Shown here: positions 3,858-48,700 of the stretch, piece by piece
How positions within the stretch are numbered: the stretch's first letter is position 1
Layout of the letters: each line of letters begins with the position of its first letter
From: a virus
Taxonomy: Duplodnaviria; Caudoviricetes
IMG/VR virus record: IMGVR_UViG_2595698668_000001
Span: 1 to 64,000 of that record
Direction: 5' to 3' (one strand)
DNA length: 64,000 nucleotides
Translations under genes and position numbers: made by a program
The notes under the pieces: generated by a model
Told to the model about the DNA's origin: nothing
Databases searched by the model: none
Seen by the model: only the letters and a program-made list of their open reading frames with translations

Positions 3858-5003
3858 CGTCCCAATCTTTAATTGCTACATCGAAAGCCAGTTTGTTATA
3901 ACCTGTTTCGTTCCAATTCTCTTTAACAAATTCTTTTGTCAGTTCTTCCCGAAGGCGATTGACCGAGGCGATAACAAACTCTTTTCGAGAATATGTCTCT
4001 GGACTTTCATAAAGAACACCATCGATTAGTGCAACGATGTCATAAGGTTCATCTGTCTTGAGATTAGTTGCCCAGATACGAGGTTGAATATTAACTTGTG
4101 GCACCGAAACAAACCAGTGTTTTCCGTCGTCATCAATAAACAGAGTTCCTGATACGTCTTCAAAGAAATCCGCTGCACCACCAACCCCACGATAAAAATT
4201 GTATTCGGTTTGATTGCGGATTTGTTCCAGAAGATCAATATGGATACTTGCATTATCTTTAGATTTAAATTCTTCGTAAACTTCTTTGATAGTCTTCATA
4301 ATATTTCCTTATGTATCTTTATTTGGTTACTTCTTACAAATGTAACTATATCACGGTACTTTTGTGTATGTCCACTTGTTTACAACACGCTTGTGATCTA
4401 CCTTAGTGTAGTGCATATATTCATATTTTTTGAGGTAACGAAGAGGGAGATTCATTACCTTGACGTTGCATTGAATCCCCATCGGGGTCCATGACATCAA
4501 TTCTTTTACTCGCCAGTAGCTGGTCTTTGGTACATACAGATCAATAACTCCAATTTTATTGGTTTCTGTGATTGCTCGCCACACACCATTCAAAACAAGA
4601 GCTGTTTCCAAATCATGAACTGAACTAATCATTTCACATCTCCAAATACATTATTAAAGTCTGGGTGTTCCCATCCTTGTACATCTTCTTTTTTAACACC
4701 AAGGAACTCGATAAGCTCCACACAACGTTCTTTGATGAACTTCATATCGTCGGTCCAGAACTCGATCATCGCCCAAGTAGTGGAACTGTTTGCGTCGAAT
4801 CCTTGGATAAACATTTTCCCATACGAATTGGTAAAAACAAACCTTTTTATGTCTTCCATCTTTTCGTCACTCAGTCCAAGGAACTGGATATTAACATTCT
4901 TGTCGCTATCTTCGAACTTCCCATAGAGGGCAGAGATGACATTGTTATTATGAGCGTCGCGGAAATTATGAAACTTTCTCATGGCATTCTCCTTTGTTAA
5001 GTT

Positions 5004-42548: not shown

Positions 42549-42845
42549 TTATTTTGAAAAAGATTTGTGAATAGCTACAGCTTCCCATACCTTATTAAAT
42601 GCATCTTCAAATGCATCATTTTCAGCGTATTTCCTGTCGTATTTTTCTGGATCTAATCCACCAGAATTGACACCATGAAAAACTAAACCGTTTTTTAATG
42701 TAATTATACAGAATAGATATCTGTTATGCTTTTCAACAATACCATCCACTCCATATACACCATTTGTGTTATCAATACCCTGTTTTGCGGTAAACCAAAA
42801 AACAGTACTGATATAACTTCCTACTTCTTCTTTGCTTATTTTCAT
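42549..42845 (-). CDS. N4 Gp49/Sf6 gp66-family protein (candidate Acb4-like nucleotide sponge)
   Basis: FWFTAKQG...FCIITLKNG...G...DPEKYD...A..KVW matches the family pattern. Confidence 0.65.
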   Translation of the reverse strand: MKISKEEVGSYISTVFWFTAKQGIDNTNGVYGVDGIVEKHNRYLFCIITLKNGLVFHGVNSGGLDPEKYDRKYAENDAFEDAFNKVWEAVAIHKSFSK

Positions 42846-43593: not shown

Positions 43594-44253
43594 TTAACCC
43601 TCGTTTTTGTAACGACCATAGTATAATATCTCAGCTTCTTTCCGTTTTAGGATGGCTTCTGATTCATCAGAACCATAATAAAGTTGGATACATTTTTTGT
43701 CAACATATATGTAAGATATCCATACACCTCGGTCTTTCCTATACTTAACTCCTGATATCCCAGACTTACAATCCTCCCTAACTTTTTGATCAAAAGATTG
43801 CATTTCGTCACTAGTCCATTCGCATGTATCTTTACTGTAAATGTTACTTGAGTTTATCCGGTTTATAGAAGTACCATCCGGCCTGATTCCCATGTCTTCG
43901 ACGAAGTGTCTAAAACCTTCACCTCCCCGAGAGAGCCACCGTTCGCATACTGTTATTCCTACAGCACCATATTTGTAATACGAGTCATTATTCTCGTTAG
44001 TACACCTACTTACCATAGCATTGTACGATGAATATGTGTATTTGTCTATTATGAATTTATTATATCGTTTACAACCACAAGATTTCGTCTTTCCGTCTTT
44101 AACCCGTGAGTGTGTCGTTTCAAACTCGTTTCCACAATGACACCTACATAACCATAATGTAGGTTTTCCTGTTTCTTTTCTTATTACACGAATGAAGGTT
44201 ATCCCATTGATAACCTTCCCAGACATATCTATTAATTTCCTTCCCAATCTCAA
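43594..44253 (-). mobile_element. HNH homing endonuclease with C-terminal AP2-like domain
   Basis: WLCRCHCG, KSCGC, YGAVGITVCERW, F..DMG.RP..SINRIN..Y....CEW, then SGISGV...W..YI. Confidence 0.9.
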
Positions 44254-45158
44254 CTCCCAAAAGGTTTGATCAAATGTTGATTTTTCAGGAAAAGTTGGAC
44301 GTAATTTTTACCATTATGTGTCTGATCGTTGTATATATCTACCACCAGATTATGATTTTCGTATGCAAATTCCCTAAACCACCCAGATGTAATAGAAGTA
44401 CAAACCTTTTCCAATGCCATCATAAAAGCTTTGGCTGGATGAACCTTACCCGGAAATGGTACTATACACCGTTCTAGTGCCAGAACACAAGCTTCTTCAT
44501 ACACACCAAGAAGTTTAAGACGCATATCACACTGTTCAAACTTCGTTTTTGATGTCATCACTTCTTCACCATCAACCATGTATGACAAGTAAGCGGGTCG
44601 TTCTCCAACAGCAATAGCTTGGTGAACTGTGTCATGGTCCATAGTGTAAAAATCATCGGTAAAGAAATCTTTCTTCCCTACATTAAGCTTCGGGTGTCCG
44701 TAAGTCAAGGATTCTTTTTCACGTTTCTTGAAGATCTCGAATTCTTTTTCATTCATCACCACACCAAAGTCACGAAGTTCGTGAATGGATTTCATGGTTT
44801 TGATGAAATTTCGAGTATTCTTTTTGAATCGATGGGACATCTTGATTGCCAGTAGAATACCGGGATTTGCTATCTTGATCTTACCATGCTCGTTATTCAT
44901 GTAGTTCGCAATCATCTCATCAGACGAACCCGGTTGAATGATATAAGCTTCATGGTAGCAACTACGACAATCCCCACGTTCAACAACAAAAGCCCGTACA
45001 TTTGGATTCTGTACGGCTACAGAGCGGCCTTGCATACGAGCTTGGTATTCACTCCACTCTTTTTCTGTTGCGATGAAATCATAATCCATATCTTTAGTTG
45101 GGGCCATACAATCAGCGTAAAAGCATTCCAACATAGCACGAGAACCAATCAAAATCAT
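44250..45158 (-). CDS. Pol-beta-superfamily nucleotidyltransferase-like protein with a helical C-terminal domain
   Basis: LIGSRA...DMDYD (GS...DxD), KMSH, DHDTVH, EEACVLALER; start MILIGS with GAGG SD. Confidence 0.7.
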   Translation of the reverse strand: MILIGSRAMLECFYADCMAPTKDMDYDFIATEKEWSEYQARMQGRSVAVQNPNVRAFVVERGDCRSCYHEAYIIQPGSSDEMIANYMNNEHGKIKIANPGILLAIKMSHRFKKNTRNFIKTMKSIHELRDFGVVMNEKEFEIFKKREKESLTYGHPKLNVGKKDFFTDDFYTMDHDTVHQAIAVGERPAYLSYMVDGEEVMTSKTKFEQCDMRLKLLGVYEEACVLALERCIVPFPGKVHPAKAFMMALEKVCTSITSGWFREFAYENHNLVVDIYNDQTHNGKNYVQLFLKNQHLIKPFGS

Positions 45159-45177
45159 AATATTACCCTCAAAATTT

Positions 45178-45198
45178 ATGGGGTCAATACGACCCCAT
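45178..45198 (-). terminator. Hairpin between the small SSC genes and the nucleotidyltransferase
   Basis: ATGGGGTC-GTATT-GACCCCAT-AAATTTT. Confidence 0.65.
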
Positions 45199-45204
45199 TT
45201 AAAA

Positions 45205-45432
45205 TTAGCAACTACTTTCTTCCCAGTAGCTAGGCTCTGCATCAACGGATACGGTAAAGCCTTCCCCACCTTCACCATAACAAGAACTACTCAGCCAGTC
45301 ATTAAACACGATCTCATCAGAGTCGGTGTCTAGTTCTACACCATAATCATGTTGACCAGCAAGATCACGTACTTCTTTCAGGAGTACAGCCAGTTGTTTT
45401 GCTTTTTCTACCAGTTCATTACTACGAGACAT
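45205..45432 (-). CDS. Small protein with WLSSSC and C-terminal WEESSC motifs
   Basis: Helical N-terminus, acidic tail, strong AAGGA SD. Confidence 0.8.
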   Translation of the reverse strand: MSRSNELVEKAKQLAVLLKEVRDLAGQHDYGVELDTDSDEIVFNDWLSSSCYGEGGEGFTVSVDAEPSYWEESSC

Positions 45433-45456
45433 TTTAGTTTTCCTTTTGTTTAAAAA

Positions 45457-45744
45457 TTAACACTGATCCGAAGAACTCATCCAATAACCATGACCGTCGC
45501 CATGACCGTAATCCTCGGCTTGTTCCAGTTCCCAATATTCATGACCGAACGGATAGTAAGTCCGACCACTTCCGTAATCCCCTACTGAGAATGATACAAC
45601 ACCAGCATCAGCGAATTTAGTTGCAACATCTTCCATCATTTCCGCCAGTTTAATAACTGTACTCACGGCTTGTTTTGCAGTCATATCGCCACTTGCGTGA
45701 GCCGCTTCAATTTTATCCATTTCTTCTTTGATTTTATCAAACAT
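45457..45744 (-). CDS. Small protein with C-terminal WMSSSDQC motif
   Basis: Helical N-terminus, Gly/Tyr/acidic tail, strong AAGGA SD. Confidence 0.8.
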   Translation of the reverse strand: MFDKIKEEMDKIEAAHASGDMTAKQAVSTVIKLAEMMEDVATKFADAGVVSFSVGDYGSGRTYYPFGHEYWELEQAEDYGHGDGHGYWMSSSDQC

Positions 45745-48700
45745 TTTTTAGTTTCCTTGATTTTAAAATTTATTCGTTGATGACAACAACAAGACGAGAG
45801 TAACTGCTATACATATCATTGGATTTAGACCAAGATACCCCATACCCATCTTTGACCAGACGTTCAACCAGTTCAGAACGGATCTCTGACGGGATGATCT
45901 CGTTGGGGATACTAACCGTTACGTTATAGTCATTTGTCTTTTTGAGAAGATATTCGTAAACGAAATTTAGTGCGTTTTGAATCAAAGCTTCTCGCTTCTC
46001 GGTGATCTTTTTGTGAATTTCAGAGCTTTTCATTACCATCGTTCCCTTTTGTTCAATCCAAATGCAATTGTGTTTTCTATAATGTTATATTGGCGATTTT
46101 CTGATTTGTGCTTGATTTCTTTCAATCGAGACACCAATTCTTTTTTCTCATCACGATTAAACTGGTCTTTATGTAAAATACCACGTTCATTCATCTCATG
46201 AATCAAGACATTCCCTTGGTGATACACCAACTTTATCTCATGTGGTTTAAATCGTCTTGGTAGATTTGGTTCCTCGATGTCAAAAGTAAAAATCAAACCA
46301 TCTACATTATCTTTTCTTGACAAGTTCCATGTAAAAGGGTCGTTATCAATCACCTCGATAATCTTTTTTGCCAACGGTCTGATGTTTGGGATGTGTTTCT
46401 TTAACAACCAAAACATATCACATCACCTCTGGTTGTGTAAATACCGCTCGATATTTCTGTTGAAGACTACGAACTGATACAATCATTGGGGTTTCTGTGT
46501 TACTTTTGAAATCTTTTACCATCAAAGAACCCATACCACCACGAGACATAACAACCCCTTTTTGGAAATGTTCCCCGACTACCCATCCTTTACCTTCAAG
46601 AACGTATACAAGTGCTTCGGAAAAAGTCATATCAAATTTCATCATAATATCCTTACTTTAGATCCGTTTCAAGAAAGTTTTTAAACGCTTCGTTTCTTTT
46701 ATTTTCCTCTACACGAGAAGACAAATTCCTCAAGGCAGTTATAATTCGTTCTCTTTCTCTTTCGTTGAAAACATCATGAACTTTACCATCATCATCATCA
46801 TCATCATACATAATTGAGATTGGAATGTAAATACCCCACACCAATTTTACACCGTCTCCAATAACAAAAGTTGATGCGGATCTGTCTATGTGTTCACGTC
46901 TCAGATCGTCACAACTATCAATGATCTCAATAATCTTATCTACTTTTCCTTGAAGTGGGGTAGGTGTAGAAGGATTAACAACATCCCAATATTGAGGCTG
47001 TTTTTCTGAATTCAAAAGATTAAAAATCCAACCCCAAAATTTACCTTTACCTTGCATATCACTATACCTCTTCAAAAATTTTCAGGTCCGATACAAACTT
47101 GATGTGTTTGTTATCAAGAAGATACTGACCAATCCCCTTTTCGGCTGCATACTTGTCTACCGCACGATACTCTCGGGTTTCGTCGTACACTTGATCGTCT
47201 TGACCAACATAAACAACTTTAAACATATATTCTTTCATATCTATTCTCCCTTGTTTTGATACAGGTATATTCTCATGATTTGAATTTAAAGTCAACTGAT
47301 GTATCCAAACTTTTTCAGTAATTTAAAAACAGGTTCATCTCCCACCTTCGGGTTGCGCCAACATTCATCACCACGGACCCACACACGGGGCAAATGAAGA
47401 ACGGGATCGATGATTTCACCATGATATAGAGTTACCAATACCAATGATTTATCTACCTTAATCGAGTTGTCCAAAGATAAGGCGGCGATGCCGAATTTTT
47501 CTTCGAAATCAAACACATCGCCCATATTTTCAGAAACAACATAATATTTCCAACCAATGTTTTTCATATCATTCTCCACAAAACAAATCCTATATCACAT
47601 AGGATACAGGATTTTCATTTAGAGTCAATCAATTTTTGGGTATTTTGGTACTGTTTTTTCCACCCATTCACATTGATAAACCTTTTCGGTTTTCACATCA
47701 TATTCTTCTGGGATTAGTTCTTTTCCGAACGAGACCCATAACATGACCCACAGAACATACCCAACAACTTGATACCCAGACGCCCCTTTATTAAAGAAAA
47801 CCTGTCGGATTGCCAAAACAAACAATGGAAGAAAAAACCCAACACAAATAATACCGATTGCCCACCACATACGAACTTCTAAGATTGGATCCATCATGAA
47901 AGTGCTTCCTCTTTTGTAATAATAGTAAGTTCTCTGTCTCGGAAATCCCAGTTGTTTCCATTAACGCTACGGATCTCTGTATTTCTAGCTGCGTAAGCAG
48001 ATCCTTCCCCATGCCCACCACCAAATGTGGTAACTTCGGTTGTTACTTTAAATTTCTGACCATCATCGTTTTTTACATAAAATTCGTCTGGTAGTTCGAA
48101 CTGTTTTTCGCCAACCATTTTGACATAACTTGACGCCCAACCACCACCAGAAACATATACAACTTTAACACCAGAAAGATTTTTCTTCAAGATGTTACAA
48201 GTGTTTTCTAAAATTGTGATTAATTGTACTGTGTTTTCACAGAGCCCAACCATATCAGAAATCCGTGACTTCTGTTCTTCGAAAGTGATCATTTCATATC
48301 CTCAATACGAGATTTCAAAACCATCAACGCATCTTCTTGGTTCTTGAGGTCAATAGGACGATTGTGGTTGTTATACATATCCCATAAGATTTTACAGGAT
48401 TCCTCACTGAACACATTATCGAAGATCCTAGGACTTTCACTAATGTCGAAAAGAGATATAATTTTTTCTTCTTTATCGAAATGGATCTGAGTTAGACCGT
48501 CGATTTTCAAAACATTGTTCATAATCCAACTAATCTTACCATTGTTTTCTGCAAAGAACAACCACTTTACGATCTCGTTTTCAATATTTTTCATTCCGGA
48601 ACCACCCACTGAATTTCCAATTGAGAATAAAACTCGTTATTAAGGTCTACAATACACCATCCGTCAAGGGTATCCCAATATTCGATGTCATCTAGGTTGA

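Follow-up and report, generated by a model that had tools for sequence, protein, structure and literature searches.

A predicted Pol-beta-fold nucleotidyltransferase genetically linked to small acidic phage proteins with a conserved Trp/Ser-Ser/Cys terminus

Organization of the locus

The window analyzed here, which comprises 64,000 nucleotides of the virus record IMGVR_UViG_2595698668_000001 (Duplodnaviria; Caudoviricetes), belongs to the 231,743-bp genome of a T4-like Aeromonas phage. In a long minus-strand run of small genes, it contains a module composed of two small acidic proteins, here named A and B, which carry a motif of tryptophan, paired serines and cysteine, and a nucleotidyltransferase-like enzyme. 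A preliminary description, made from the sequence alone, had proposed that the enzyme modifies the small proteins in a system resembling those of RiPPs (peptides made ribosomally and modified post-translationally). The features of the module are the following (ORF, open reading frame; aa, amino acids):

45457..45744, minus strand: small acidic protein A of the long class, 95 aa; ORF, member of PHROG 899
45205..45432, minus strand: small acidic protein B of the short or double class, 75 aa; ORF, member of PHROG 899
45178..45198, minus strand: GC-rich stem-loop with 8 bp, located after gene B and before the enzyme gene, predicted by folding
44250..45158, minus strand: nucleotidyltransferase-like enzyme, 302 aa; Pfam domains DUF7277 and DUF7275, PHROG 2141, AlphaFold (AF2) model

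The two small ORFs and their three motif copies (YWMSSSDQC, DWLSSSC and YWEESSC), reported in the preliminary description, are indeed found at these positions and on this strand. Protein A is laid out as an N-terminal helical hairpin, a glycine loop (GDYGSGRTYYP), an acidic linker and the terminal YWMSSSDQC, its C-terminus reading ...GYWMSSSDQC. Protein B is composed of one helix, an internal copy of the motif (...NDWLSSSCYGE...) and a terminal one (...SYWEESSC). Directly upstream of both genes stand the near-identical strong leaders already noticed in that description, TTTTAAA..AAGGAAA(A)CTAAAA(A)ATG, which can be read in the sequence. The mechanical ORF of the enzyme gene extends over 44250..45278, and since all 33 aligned homologues begin with M-[IL]-x-[IV]-G-S, the real start is placed at the ATG at 45158.

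The entries DUF7277, DUF7275, PHROG 2141 and PHROG 899 carry no function, and no functional description of either part was found in the literature, just as none had been known to the preliminary description. The literature searched, supplements excluded, contained no papers on DUF7275, DUF7277, PF23940 or PF23942, and nothing relevant on phage-encoded RiPPs with a nucleotidyltransferase or on C-terminal cysteines in small proteins of T4-like phages.

Genomic linkage of the small proteins and the enzyme

The association of the two components was assessed in 80 viral loci, fetched with the enzyme profile together with 5 kb on each side and translated into six-frame ORFs of at least 40 aa. The strict motif W-x-x-S-S-(x-x)-C stands at the end of 171 of the 5775 ORFs, and all 171 lie upstream of the enzyme on its strand, at distances of 45-2859 nt (median 886) from the end of the ORF to the start of the enzyme. 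At least one such ORF is present in 72 of the 80 loci, so that the genomic co-occurrence on which the preliminary description had staked its proposal is found. Among the remaining eight loci, three have variant tails (...NWDSSTC in one, ...WYSSSEAWTPSGCSY in two) and five have none within the flank. When five loci from genome collections (metagenome-assembled genomes, probably phage contigs) are added, which gives 85 loci, a strict-motif ORF is found in 19 of 22 enzyme lineages, defined as clusters at 60% identity. The number of copies per locus ranges from none (9 loci) through one (28), two (22), three (7) and four (12) to five (7). In the whole 231,743-bp genome, the motif ends only proteins A and B among 2182 ORFs of at least 30 aa. 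The linkage between the small proteins and the enzyme is far beyond chance.

The small family is also the only widely co-conserved neighbor, being shared by 16 lineages by BLAST cluster, versus 5 for the next best family. Clustering of all same-strand neighbors in the 85 loci revealed no third widely shared gene, and no protease, cyclase, flavoprotein, exporter or other tailoring gene was co-conserved among them. The module is common and is found in T4-like, phAPEC8-like, Pseudomonas, Acinetobacter and jumbo phages, and its layout is kept in phages of E. coli, Acinetobacter and Pseudomonas despite differing neighbor genes. Gaprivervirus VR7 carries five small-protein copies beside e.3/e.4, phage WPEC4 has three beside the enzyme, and the same layout is kept in Pseudomonas phage Kremar; in Acinetobacter AM101, the module lies between helicase and primase genes. 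It also occurs in jumbo-phage contigs of ~355-371 kb and in Pseudomonas phages of ~98 kb.

These data bear on the alternative in which the small proteins and the enzyme are functionally independent and have merely been co-inherited by descent. Most of the loci come from T4-like phages with a conserved gene order, and a genome with the enzyme only exists (see below), both of which would agree with mere synteny. However, in those 19 lineages the pair stands in the same order and on the same strand while all other neighbors differ, and the set includes the jumbo-phage contigs, the ~98 kb Pseudomonas phages and the different Acinetobacter locus, which leaves co-inheritance without coupling very improbable. 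The idea that the module always lies beside phage tRNA genes was dropped, as the window has no tRNA gene.

The family of small proteins

Proteins A and B match PHROG 899 with E-values of 9.4e-20 and 1.2e-06, respectively, both on the C-terminal part of the 221-position profile. Apart from the motif, they had been regarded as dissimilar, and a pairwise BLAST between them is insignificant (E 0.57), but profiles of the A type and the B type align at 84% probability over a helix-strand segment; as both also match PHROG 899, they are better described as diverged paralogues. In the family of protein A (32 homologues), W88, S91, S92 and C95 are invariant and Y57, G58, G60 and Y63 nearly so, while in that of protein B (10 homologues) the invariant residues are W46, S49, C51, W70, S73, S74 and C75. 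Protein B is 100% identical in related Aeromonas phages.

Two classes are present in the fetched loci. The long class has the tail W-x-[SAP]-S-S-x-x-C, with 119 distinct tails, and the short, internally duplicated class combines DW[LN][SN]S[SDA]CYGE with a terminal IW-x-x-S-S-C, with 22 distinct tails, 18 of which come with the internal copy. The common architecture starts with a helix ending in A-[ED]-x-I-A-D-E-H-G-L-x-F, which is followed by a strand, the glycine loop Y-G-x-G-G-x-Y, an acidic linker and the tail; the shortest member has 60 aa. A profile search of 1.84 billion representatives yielded 1061 members at E ≤1e-3, counted as representatives at 50% identity, and 405 at 1e-10. Among the best 150 of the 1061 members, 146 end exactly in W-x-[SAP]-S-S-x-x-C, a count that is not fully independent because the profile includes the tail, although the tail makes up only 4 of its 94 positions; the other four have one residue added or changed. 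Of the same 150 proteins, 88 have no other cysteine and 149 have the Y-G-x-G element, and their median isoelectric point is 4.46.

Proteins of 139 aa that end in ...AWCSSSM[IES]C were observed in three places, at L035:3469-3888, at L044:3486-3905 and in a phage genome designated G002 (L104:14183-14602, minus strand). As they were missed by the small-family profile, the family is wider than PHROG 899.

Fold of protein A and the RiPP alternative

The AlphaFold model of protein A has a mean predicted local distance difference test (pLDDT) score of 87.8 and comprises helices at residues 2-18, 23-48 and 70-78, strands at 52-54, 61-64 and 87-90 (Y-W-M-S), and a terminal turn formed by S91-Q94. Protein A is thus predicted to be a compact folded domain with the motif inside the fold, and the acidic and glycine-rich "tail" of the preliminary description belongs, in this model, to the folded domain. 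The fold gave no usable match in structure comparisons (VIA-align, best Z 4.8; Foldseek, best E 0.5, with HU proteins) or in the ESM Atlas, and in family-library and structure searches the small proteins resembled no known antitoxin.

The predicted fold is relevant for the RiPP-like leader and core that had been suggested. In a true RiPP, the small proteins would be leader-plus-core precursors with a tail that undergoes modification (activation and elimination of the serine with subsequent addition of the cysteine would be one example), is cleaved off and leaves the protein as a free peptide. A C-terminal cysteine together with serine is typical of lanthipeptide and AviCys precursors, and the tandem, precursor-like genes studied here have a conserved Ser/Cys site. 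The accessible part of PMC13381572 describes nucleotidyltransferases of unknown role in some RiPP clusters; the LPP and paeninodin-type clusters share with the phage module the tandem small genes, a serine modification (which is proposed here) and a nucleotidyltransferase-like gene, although for their NTP-transferase that part of the article reports no detectable role. Unlike the phage module, these clusters have a kinase, a RiPP recognition element, a peptidase and an exporter (same excerpts), none of which is co-conserved here, and protease, cyclase and flavoprotein genes are missing from the shared neighbors as well. Furthermore, the putative core is conserved and the putative leader variable, the reverse of most RiPPs, and the model of the 95-aa protein A shows a single compact domain, of which the motif is a part. 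A classical RiPP is unlikely in view of this predicted fold and the lack of processing genes, and the released-peptide scheme would be given only a slight chance; the part of the earlier proposal that invokes a leader and a core is therefore not supported.

Signals between the small genes and the enzyme gene

The GC hairpin at 45178-45198 that had been pointed out in the preliminary description forms an 8-base-pair stem (AUGGGGUC/GACCCCAU), and its 66-nt context folds at -17 kcal/mol with a z-score of -2.86, a stability equaled by 2 of 200 shuffles. On its 3' side follow AAAUUUUG and then the ribosome-binding site of the enzyme gene. The stem-loop was not called by a simple terminator scan, and it may be an attenuator or an RNA-stability element. 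In other lineages, a hairpin recurs between the small genes and the enzyme gene, often terminator-like and with T-runs: among 16 distinct intergenic regions, in which the last small gene ends 25-200 nt before the enzyme gene, 9 fold with z < -2. Several of these regions show, on reading, clear stem-loops with T-runs, and in some a sigma-70-like or T4-early-like promoter follows. The pattern fits small proteins that are probably made in excess of the enzyme, and such an excess would be expected of substrates and antitoxin-like regulators alike.

Individual cases include the clear T-run stem-loops before the enzyme gene at ~4950-5000 of loci L010, L009, L034, L035, L044, L070, L073 and L083. A promoter-like TTGACA-N17-TA(G/A)ACT site lies after the stem-loop in L034, L035 and L044, and a T4-early-like GTTTACA...TATAGT site ahead of the enzyme gene in L012, L021 and L029. 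Two 151-nt contigs identical to 45117-45267 and 45272-45422 of the window come from one wastewater RNA library, which may contain DNA, and they support no conclusion about transcription.

Sequence and conservation of the enzyme

The enzyme consists of DUF7277, a Pol-beta-type N-terminal domain (residues 1-87, Pfam E 1.7e-21), and DUF7275, a mostly helical C-terminal domain (residues 101-287, E 1.2e-69); the matches to the two Pfam domains, with 234.4 bits for one and 77.1 bits for the other, are above the cut-offs of 27. It belongs to PHROG 2141 (E 2.3e-124), and enzymes of this kind occur in 727 phage records and 2504 protein clusters.

The alignment of 34 enzyme sequences, in which the homologues are 42-67% identical to the protein of the window, has 61 invariant columns. 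The preliminary description had reported a protein of about 300 aa with GS...DxD, KxSH, HDxxH and EE motifs, and all of these, G5-S6, D25-x-D27, K106-x-S-H109, H175-D176-x-x-H179 and E221-E222, are invariant in the alignment. The Pol-beta signature (an hG[GS] loop and, on the strand after it, [DE]x[DE]) corresponds to G5-S6 and D25-x-D27 together with E70. Further invariant residues are K120, T121, R146, E149, H155, D174-H175-D176 and E229-R230, as well as the stretch K251-V-(C)-(T)-S-I-T-S-G-(W)-F-R262, within which C253, T254 and W260 are nearly invariant (≥90%). Across the 85 loci, G5 and S6 are kept in 84, D25 in 82 and D27 in 84, and the third acidic residue, E70, which lies on strand 67-73 of the model, is glutamate in 76 and aspartate in 6. 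Thirteen checked sites of DUF7275 are identical in 85 of 85 loci.

None of the 34 homologues matched Pfam AbiEii (PF08843) or another known family up to E 5, and the weak Pfam matches that recurred among them pointed to no known family. At the level of sequence, the enzyme is not a member of the AbiEii/MenT family. Sequence searches of solved structures, with the enzyme alone and with its profile, gave no matches; PADLOC returned only a weak match to PD-Lambda-5_B (E 0.014) and NCBIfam only chance-level matches. An HD-domain phosphohydrolase was considered for the C-terminal domain because of its H...HD...H pattern, and this reading found no sequence support, as no Pfam HD match was obtained in the 34 homologues.

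Structural relatives and a MenAT-like alternative

The AlphaFold model of the enzyme (pLDDT 90.8, predicted template modeling score 0.84) was compared by VIA-align with 48,161 chains. The best match is MenT1 (Z 9.9, root-mean-square deviation 4.0, 150 residues aligned), followed by TglT/MenT3 (Z 9.5), MenT4 (Z 8.8), ANT(2'') (Z 8.5), a Helicobacter nucleotidyltransferase (JHP933-like, 4ok0; Z 7.9) and LnuA (Z 7.5). In Foldseek, MenT1 is likewise the best match in the PDB (E 1.2e-3). Language-model neighbors, which are leads only (scores 0.90-0.92), include clusters of DUF6036, DUF2204/AbiEii and aminoglycoside nucleotidyltransferases. The fold is therefore predicted with high confidence to be that of a Pol-beta-type nucleotidyltransferase, nearest to the MenT/AbiEii type, and the nucleotidyltransferase fold expected in the preliminary description is borne out by the model. 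The structural matches hardly extend over model residues 157-210, in which the DHD..H cluster is located. In MenT-type toxins, the C-terminal motifs III and IV line the active site (excerpts of PMC7450476), and in the phage enzyme K106-x-x-H109-R110 stands where a motif-III-like lysine could be. Among the BFVD matches of the enzyme model, DUF7275 proteins of giant viruses were observed, from Sylvanvirus (508 aa) and Satyrvirus (571 aa), with Foldseek E-values of 2e-14 and 3.5e-09.

The N-terminal domain superposes on ANT(2'') and LnuA, which, unlike the phage enzyme, are shorter, have no DUF7275, act on antibiotics and have no small-protein partners. The resemblance to MenT/AbiEii (DUF1814) and their partners MenA/AbiEi goes further: a Pol-beta core is followed by a helical C-terminal lobe, the G-S and D-x-D are invariant, and the enzyme gene has a small gene immediately upstream. 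The phage enzyme differs in a large family-specific insertion holding H155, D174-H175-D176 and H179, and the module is encoded by lytic phages with 1-5 partner paralogues whose W..SS..C terminus is unlike that of any antitoxin found.

Owing to this structural kinship, the main alternative is a pair similar to MenAT, in which the enzyme would nucleotidylate RNA, for example the 3' ends of host tRNAs, and so shut off or re-program translation, while the small proteins, bound to the enzyme, would turn it off or adjust its activity. The Ser/Cys tail might make them pseudo-substrates, or they might induce self-modification of the active-site serine S6. The AbiEii, DUF2204 and DUF6036 clusters among the language-model leads point in the same direction as the structural matches, and parallels come from the accessible parts of the literature, in which the MenAT1 toxin is neutralized by a 68-aa protein encoded just upstream (PMC7450476, PMC10435456) and the N-terminal helix of this protein triggers auto-phosphorylation of an active-site residue of the toxin (PMC11375011). 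Here, too, small helical proteins are encoded upstream and probably made in excess, as suggested by the hairpin, and the enzyme keeps the invariant G-S. An intact enzyme in a genome with no motif protein (G001, see below) indicates a role of its own and, together with the extreme conservation of DUF7275, favors RNA or another universal substrate. On the other hand, with E-values up to 5 allowed, the 34 homologues match neither AbiEii nor a further known family, the small proteins are unlike any known antitoxin, and antitoxins do not usually come as one to five diverged paralogues per phage. Nothing in the descriptions of MenA1 in those excerpts corresponds to the strictly terminal W..SS..C tail, and a lytic phage has no obvious need of an addiction module. 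On balance, the MenAT-like explanation appears possible but doubtful.

Distant clades and a possible adaptor role

A shorter clade of the enzyme, PHROG 6944, has DUF7275 and a truncated DUF7277, and always adjoins a different family of small proteins, PHROGs 13591, 18295 and 8206. These partners have the motif GYYxS[YW]xG...DG...EVxP with an invariant serine. The clade is represented as follows:

Members: KVP40.0037 (Vibrio phage), gp205 of Streptomyces phage Blueeyedbeauty and gp17 of Gordonia phage Bachita
Loci: L093:3327-4384, L091:3851-5301 and L092:3869-5417

In Brevibacillus phage Sundance, a PHROG-2141 enzyme has gp88 (L090:3675-3956) encoded directly upstream; the C-terminus of gp88 reads EEEEYSSSYYEEEEYSSSYYEED, with two YSSSYY repeats in glutamate runs, and the protein has no cysteine. 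Judged from these sequences, what the clades have in common is a small neighboring protein in which a serine stands among aromatic residues, and the tryptophan and cysteine of the tail are specific to the large clade studied here.

The comparison is also of interest for the possibility that the small proteins are unmodified adaptors or specificity subunits, which would dock onto the enzyme via the tail and recruit host proteins or nucleic acids for nucleotidylation through their variable helical surfaces. Variable surfaces combined with one invariant docking-like motif, the multiple paralogues, the strict linkage and the predicted fold all agree with such a role. There is, however, no evidence of a third partner, the invariant Ser-Ser beside a terminal Cys suggests a site of chemistry rather than a surface for docking, and the distant clades keep the serine and not the rest of the motif, all of which makes adaptors an improbable explanation.

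Proposed nucleotidylation of small client proteins

In the best single reading, to which we assign somewhat less than an even chance, the small proteins are clients whose invariant serine is nucleotidylated by the enzyme. This reading is preferred because of the strict linkage, the intact catalytic site, the variable paralogues with one Ser/Cys site and the serine in the distant partners. The protein with DUF7277 and DUF7275 would be an active Pol-beta-fold nucleotidyltransferase in a two-component early phage module, and the small acidic proteins of PHROG 899 would be its clients, with one to five tandem paralogues that have variable surfaces and one invariant tail; a set of variable paralogues with a common invariant site is more in keeping with clients than with a single inhibitor. 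The enzyme would recognize the C-terminal W-x-x-S-S-(x-x)-C tail and transfer a nucleotide-derived group, most simply a nucleoside monophosphate (NMP), to the hydroxyl of the serine at W+3, which corresponds to S91 in protein A and to S49 and S73 in protein B, while the neighboring terminal cysteine may serve in recognition or in follow-up chemistry. Translation of the small genes would be driven by the strong duplicated leaders, the hairpin would keep the enzyme scarcer than its clients, and the modified small proteins would then act on host factors early in infection.

Precedents for such chemistry exist among enzymes with the Pol-beta fold, as GlnE, GlnD and MntA (which acts on HepT) use a hydroxyl of a partner protein as the acceptor of an NMP, the partner being encoded by a neighboring gene. 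The reaction proposed for the phage enzyme would be analogous, although it has no sequence or family match to enzymes of the GlnE/GlnD/MntA type in Pfam or NCBIfam. The known acceptors of protein-nucleotidylating enzymes of this fold are tyrosines, whereas the candidate acceptor in the phage system is a serine in a C-terminal motif, and the client paralogues are many.

Several observations weigh against nucleotidylated clients. The motif is predicted not to form a free tail but to be built into the fold, as part of a sheet (strand 87-90) and a helical turn (91-94; pLDDT ~80). The closest solved structures, MenT1, MenT3 and MenT4, nucleotidylate tRNA rather than proteins and are regulated by small upstream proteins, according to the accessible parts of PMC10435456 and PMC11375011. 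DUF7275 is extremely conserved, in contrast to the clients, which average 18% column identity, and this also fits a universal substrate such as RNA. Binding or modification of the small proteins by the enzyme is itself a proposal.

Exceptional genomes add to these points. As the profile search for small proteins recovered one of two known members in a positive control, genomes with the enzyme only were additionally scanned for the motif. In the phage genome G001 (97% complete), the enzyme is intact and none of the 1224 ORFs has the motif. The sole candidate in G002 (96% complete) is the 139-aa ORF, ending ...AWCSSSMEC, which lies ~6 kb from the enzyme on the opposite strand. These two genomes indicate that the enzyme can persist without adjacent clients. 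The only lineage with no adjacent motif gene (L043, L054, L056 and L059, including G002) has the enzyme changes W260R and D174Q/E, and in L043 the enzyme ORF is split. The co-variation of W260R and D174Q/E with client loss would speak for the client reading but, being a single evolutionary event, is only suggestive.

A bolder form of the client reading, which we regard as unlikely, is that lytic phages of many hosts perform a tailoring chemistry on proteins that has not previously been described: a MenT-like enzyme would covalently arm small folded proteins of a hypervariable family, each at a single invariant serine that adjoins the terminal cysteine. The product could be a stable Ser-O-nucleotide, or activation and elimination could be followed by attack of the cysteine to give a Ser-Cys thioether. 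If true, the phage would direct a whole set of modified effectors, early in infection, at host factors that differ from one effector to the next.

The conserved Trp/Ser-Ser/terminal-Cys tail on otherwise freely evolving proteins offers a sharp, testable handle. Either answer, small proteins nucleotidylated by the phages that encode them or an RNA-modifying enzyme that is MenT-like and regulated, would assign a function to hundreds of "hypothetical" early genes, which probably bear on host takeover or counter-defense.

Genes flanking the module

A gene resembling HNH homing endonucleases (43594-44253, minus strand; PHROG 374, E 2.1e-56) begins at the stop codon of the enzyme gene. As the closest relatives match the window only from ~44247-44258 on, it appears to have been inserted in this phage specifically. 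Upstream of protein A, an 89-aa ORF (45770-46039, minus strand) has a partial, sub-threshold match to DNA alpha-glucosyltransferase (E 2.9e-4, 20.5 bits, cut-off 25), and a 98-aa ORF at 42549-42845 (minus strand) is a member of the Phage_gp49_66 family (E 5.8e-08).

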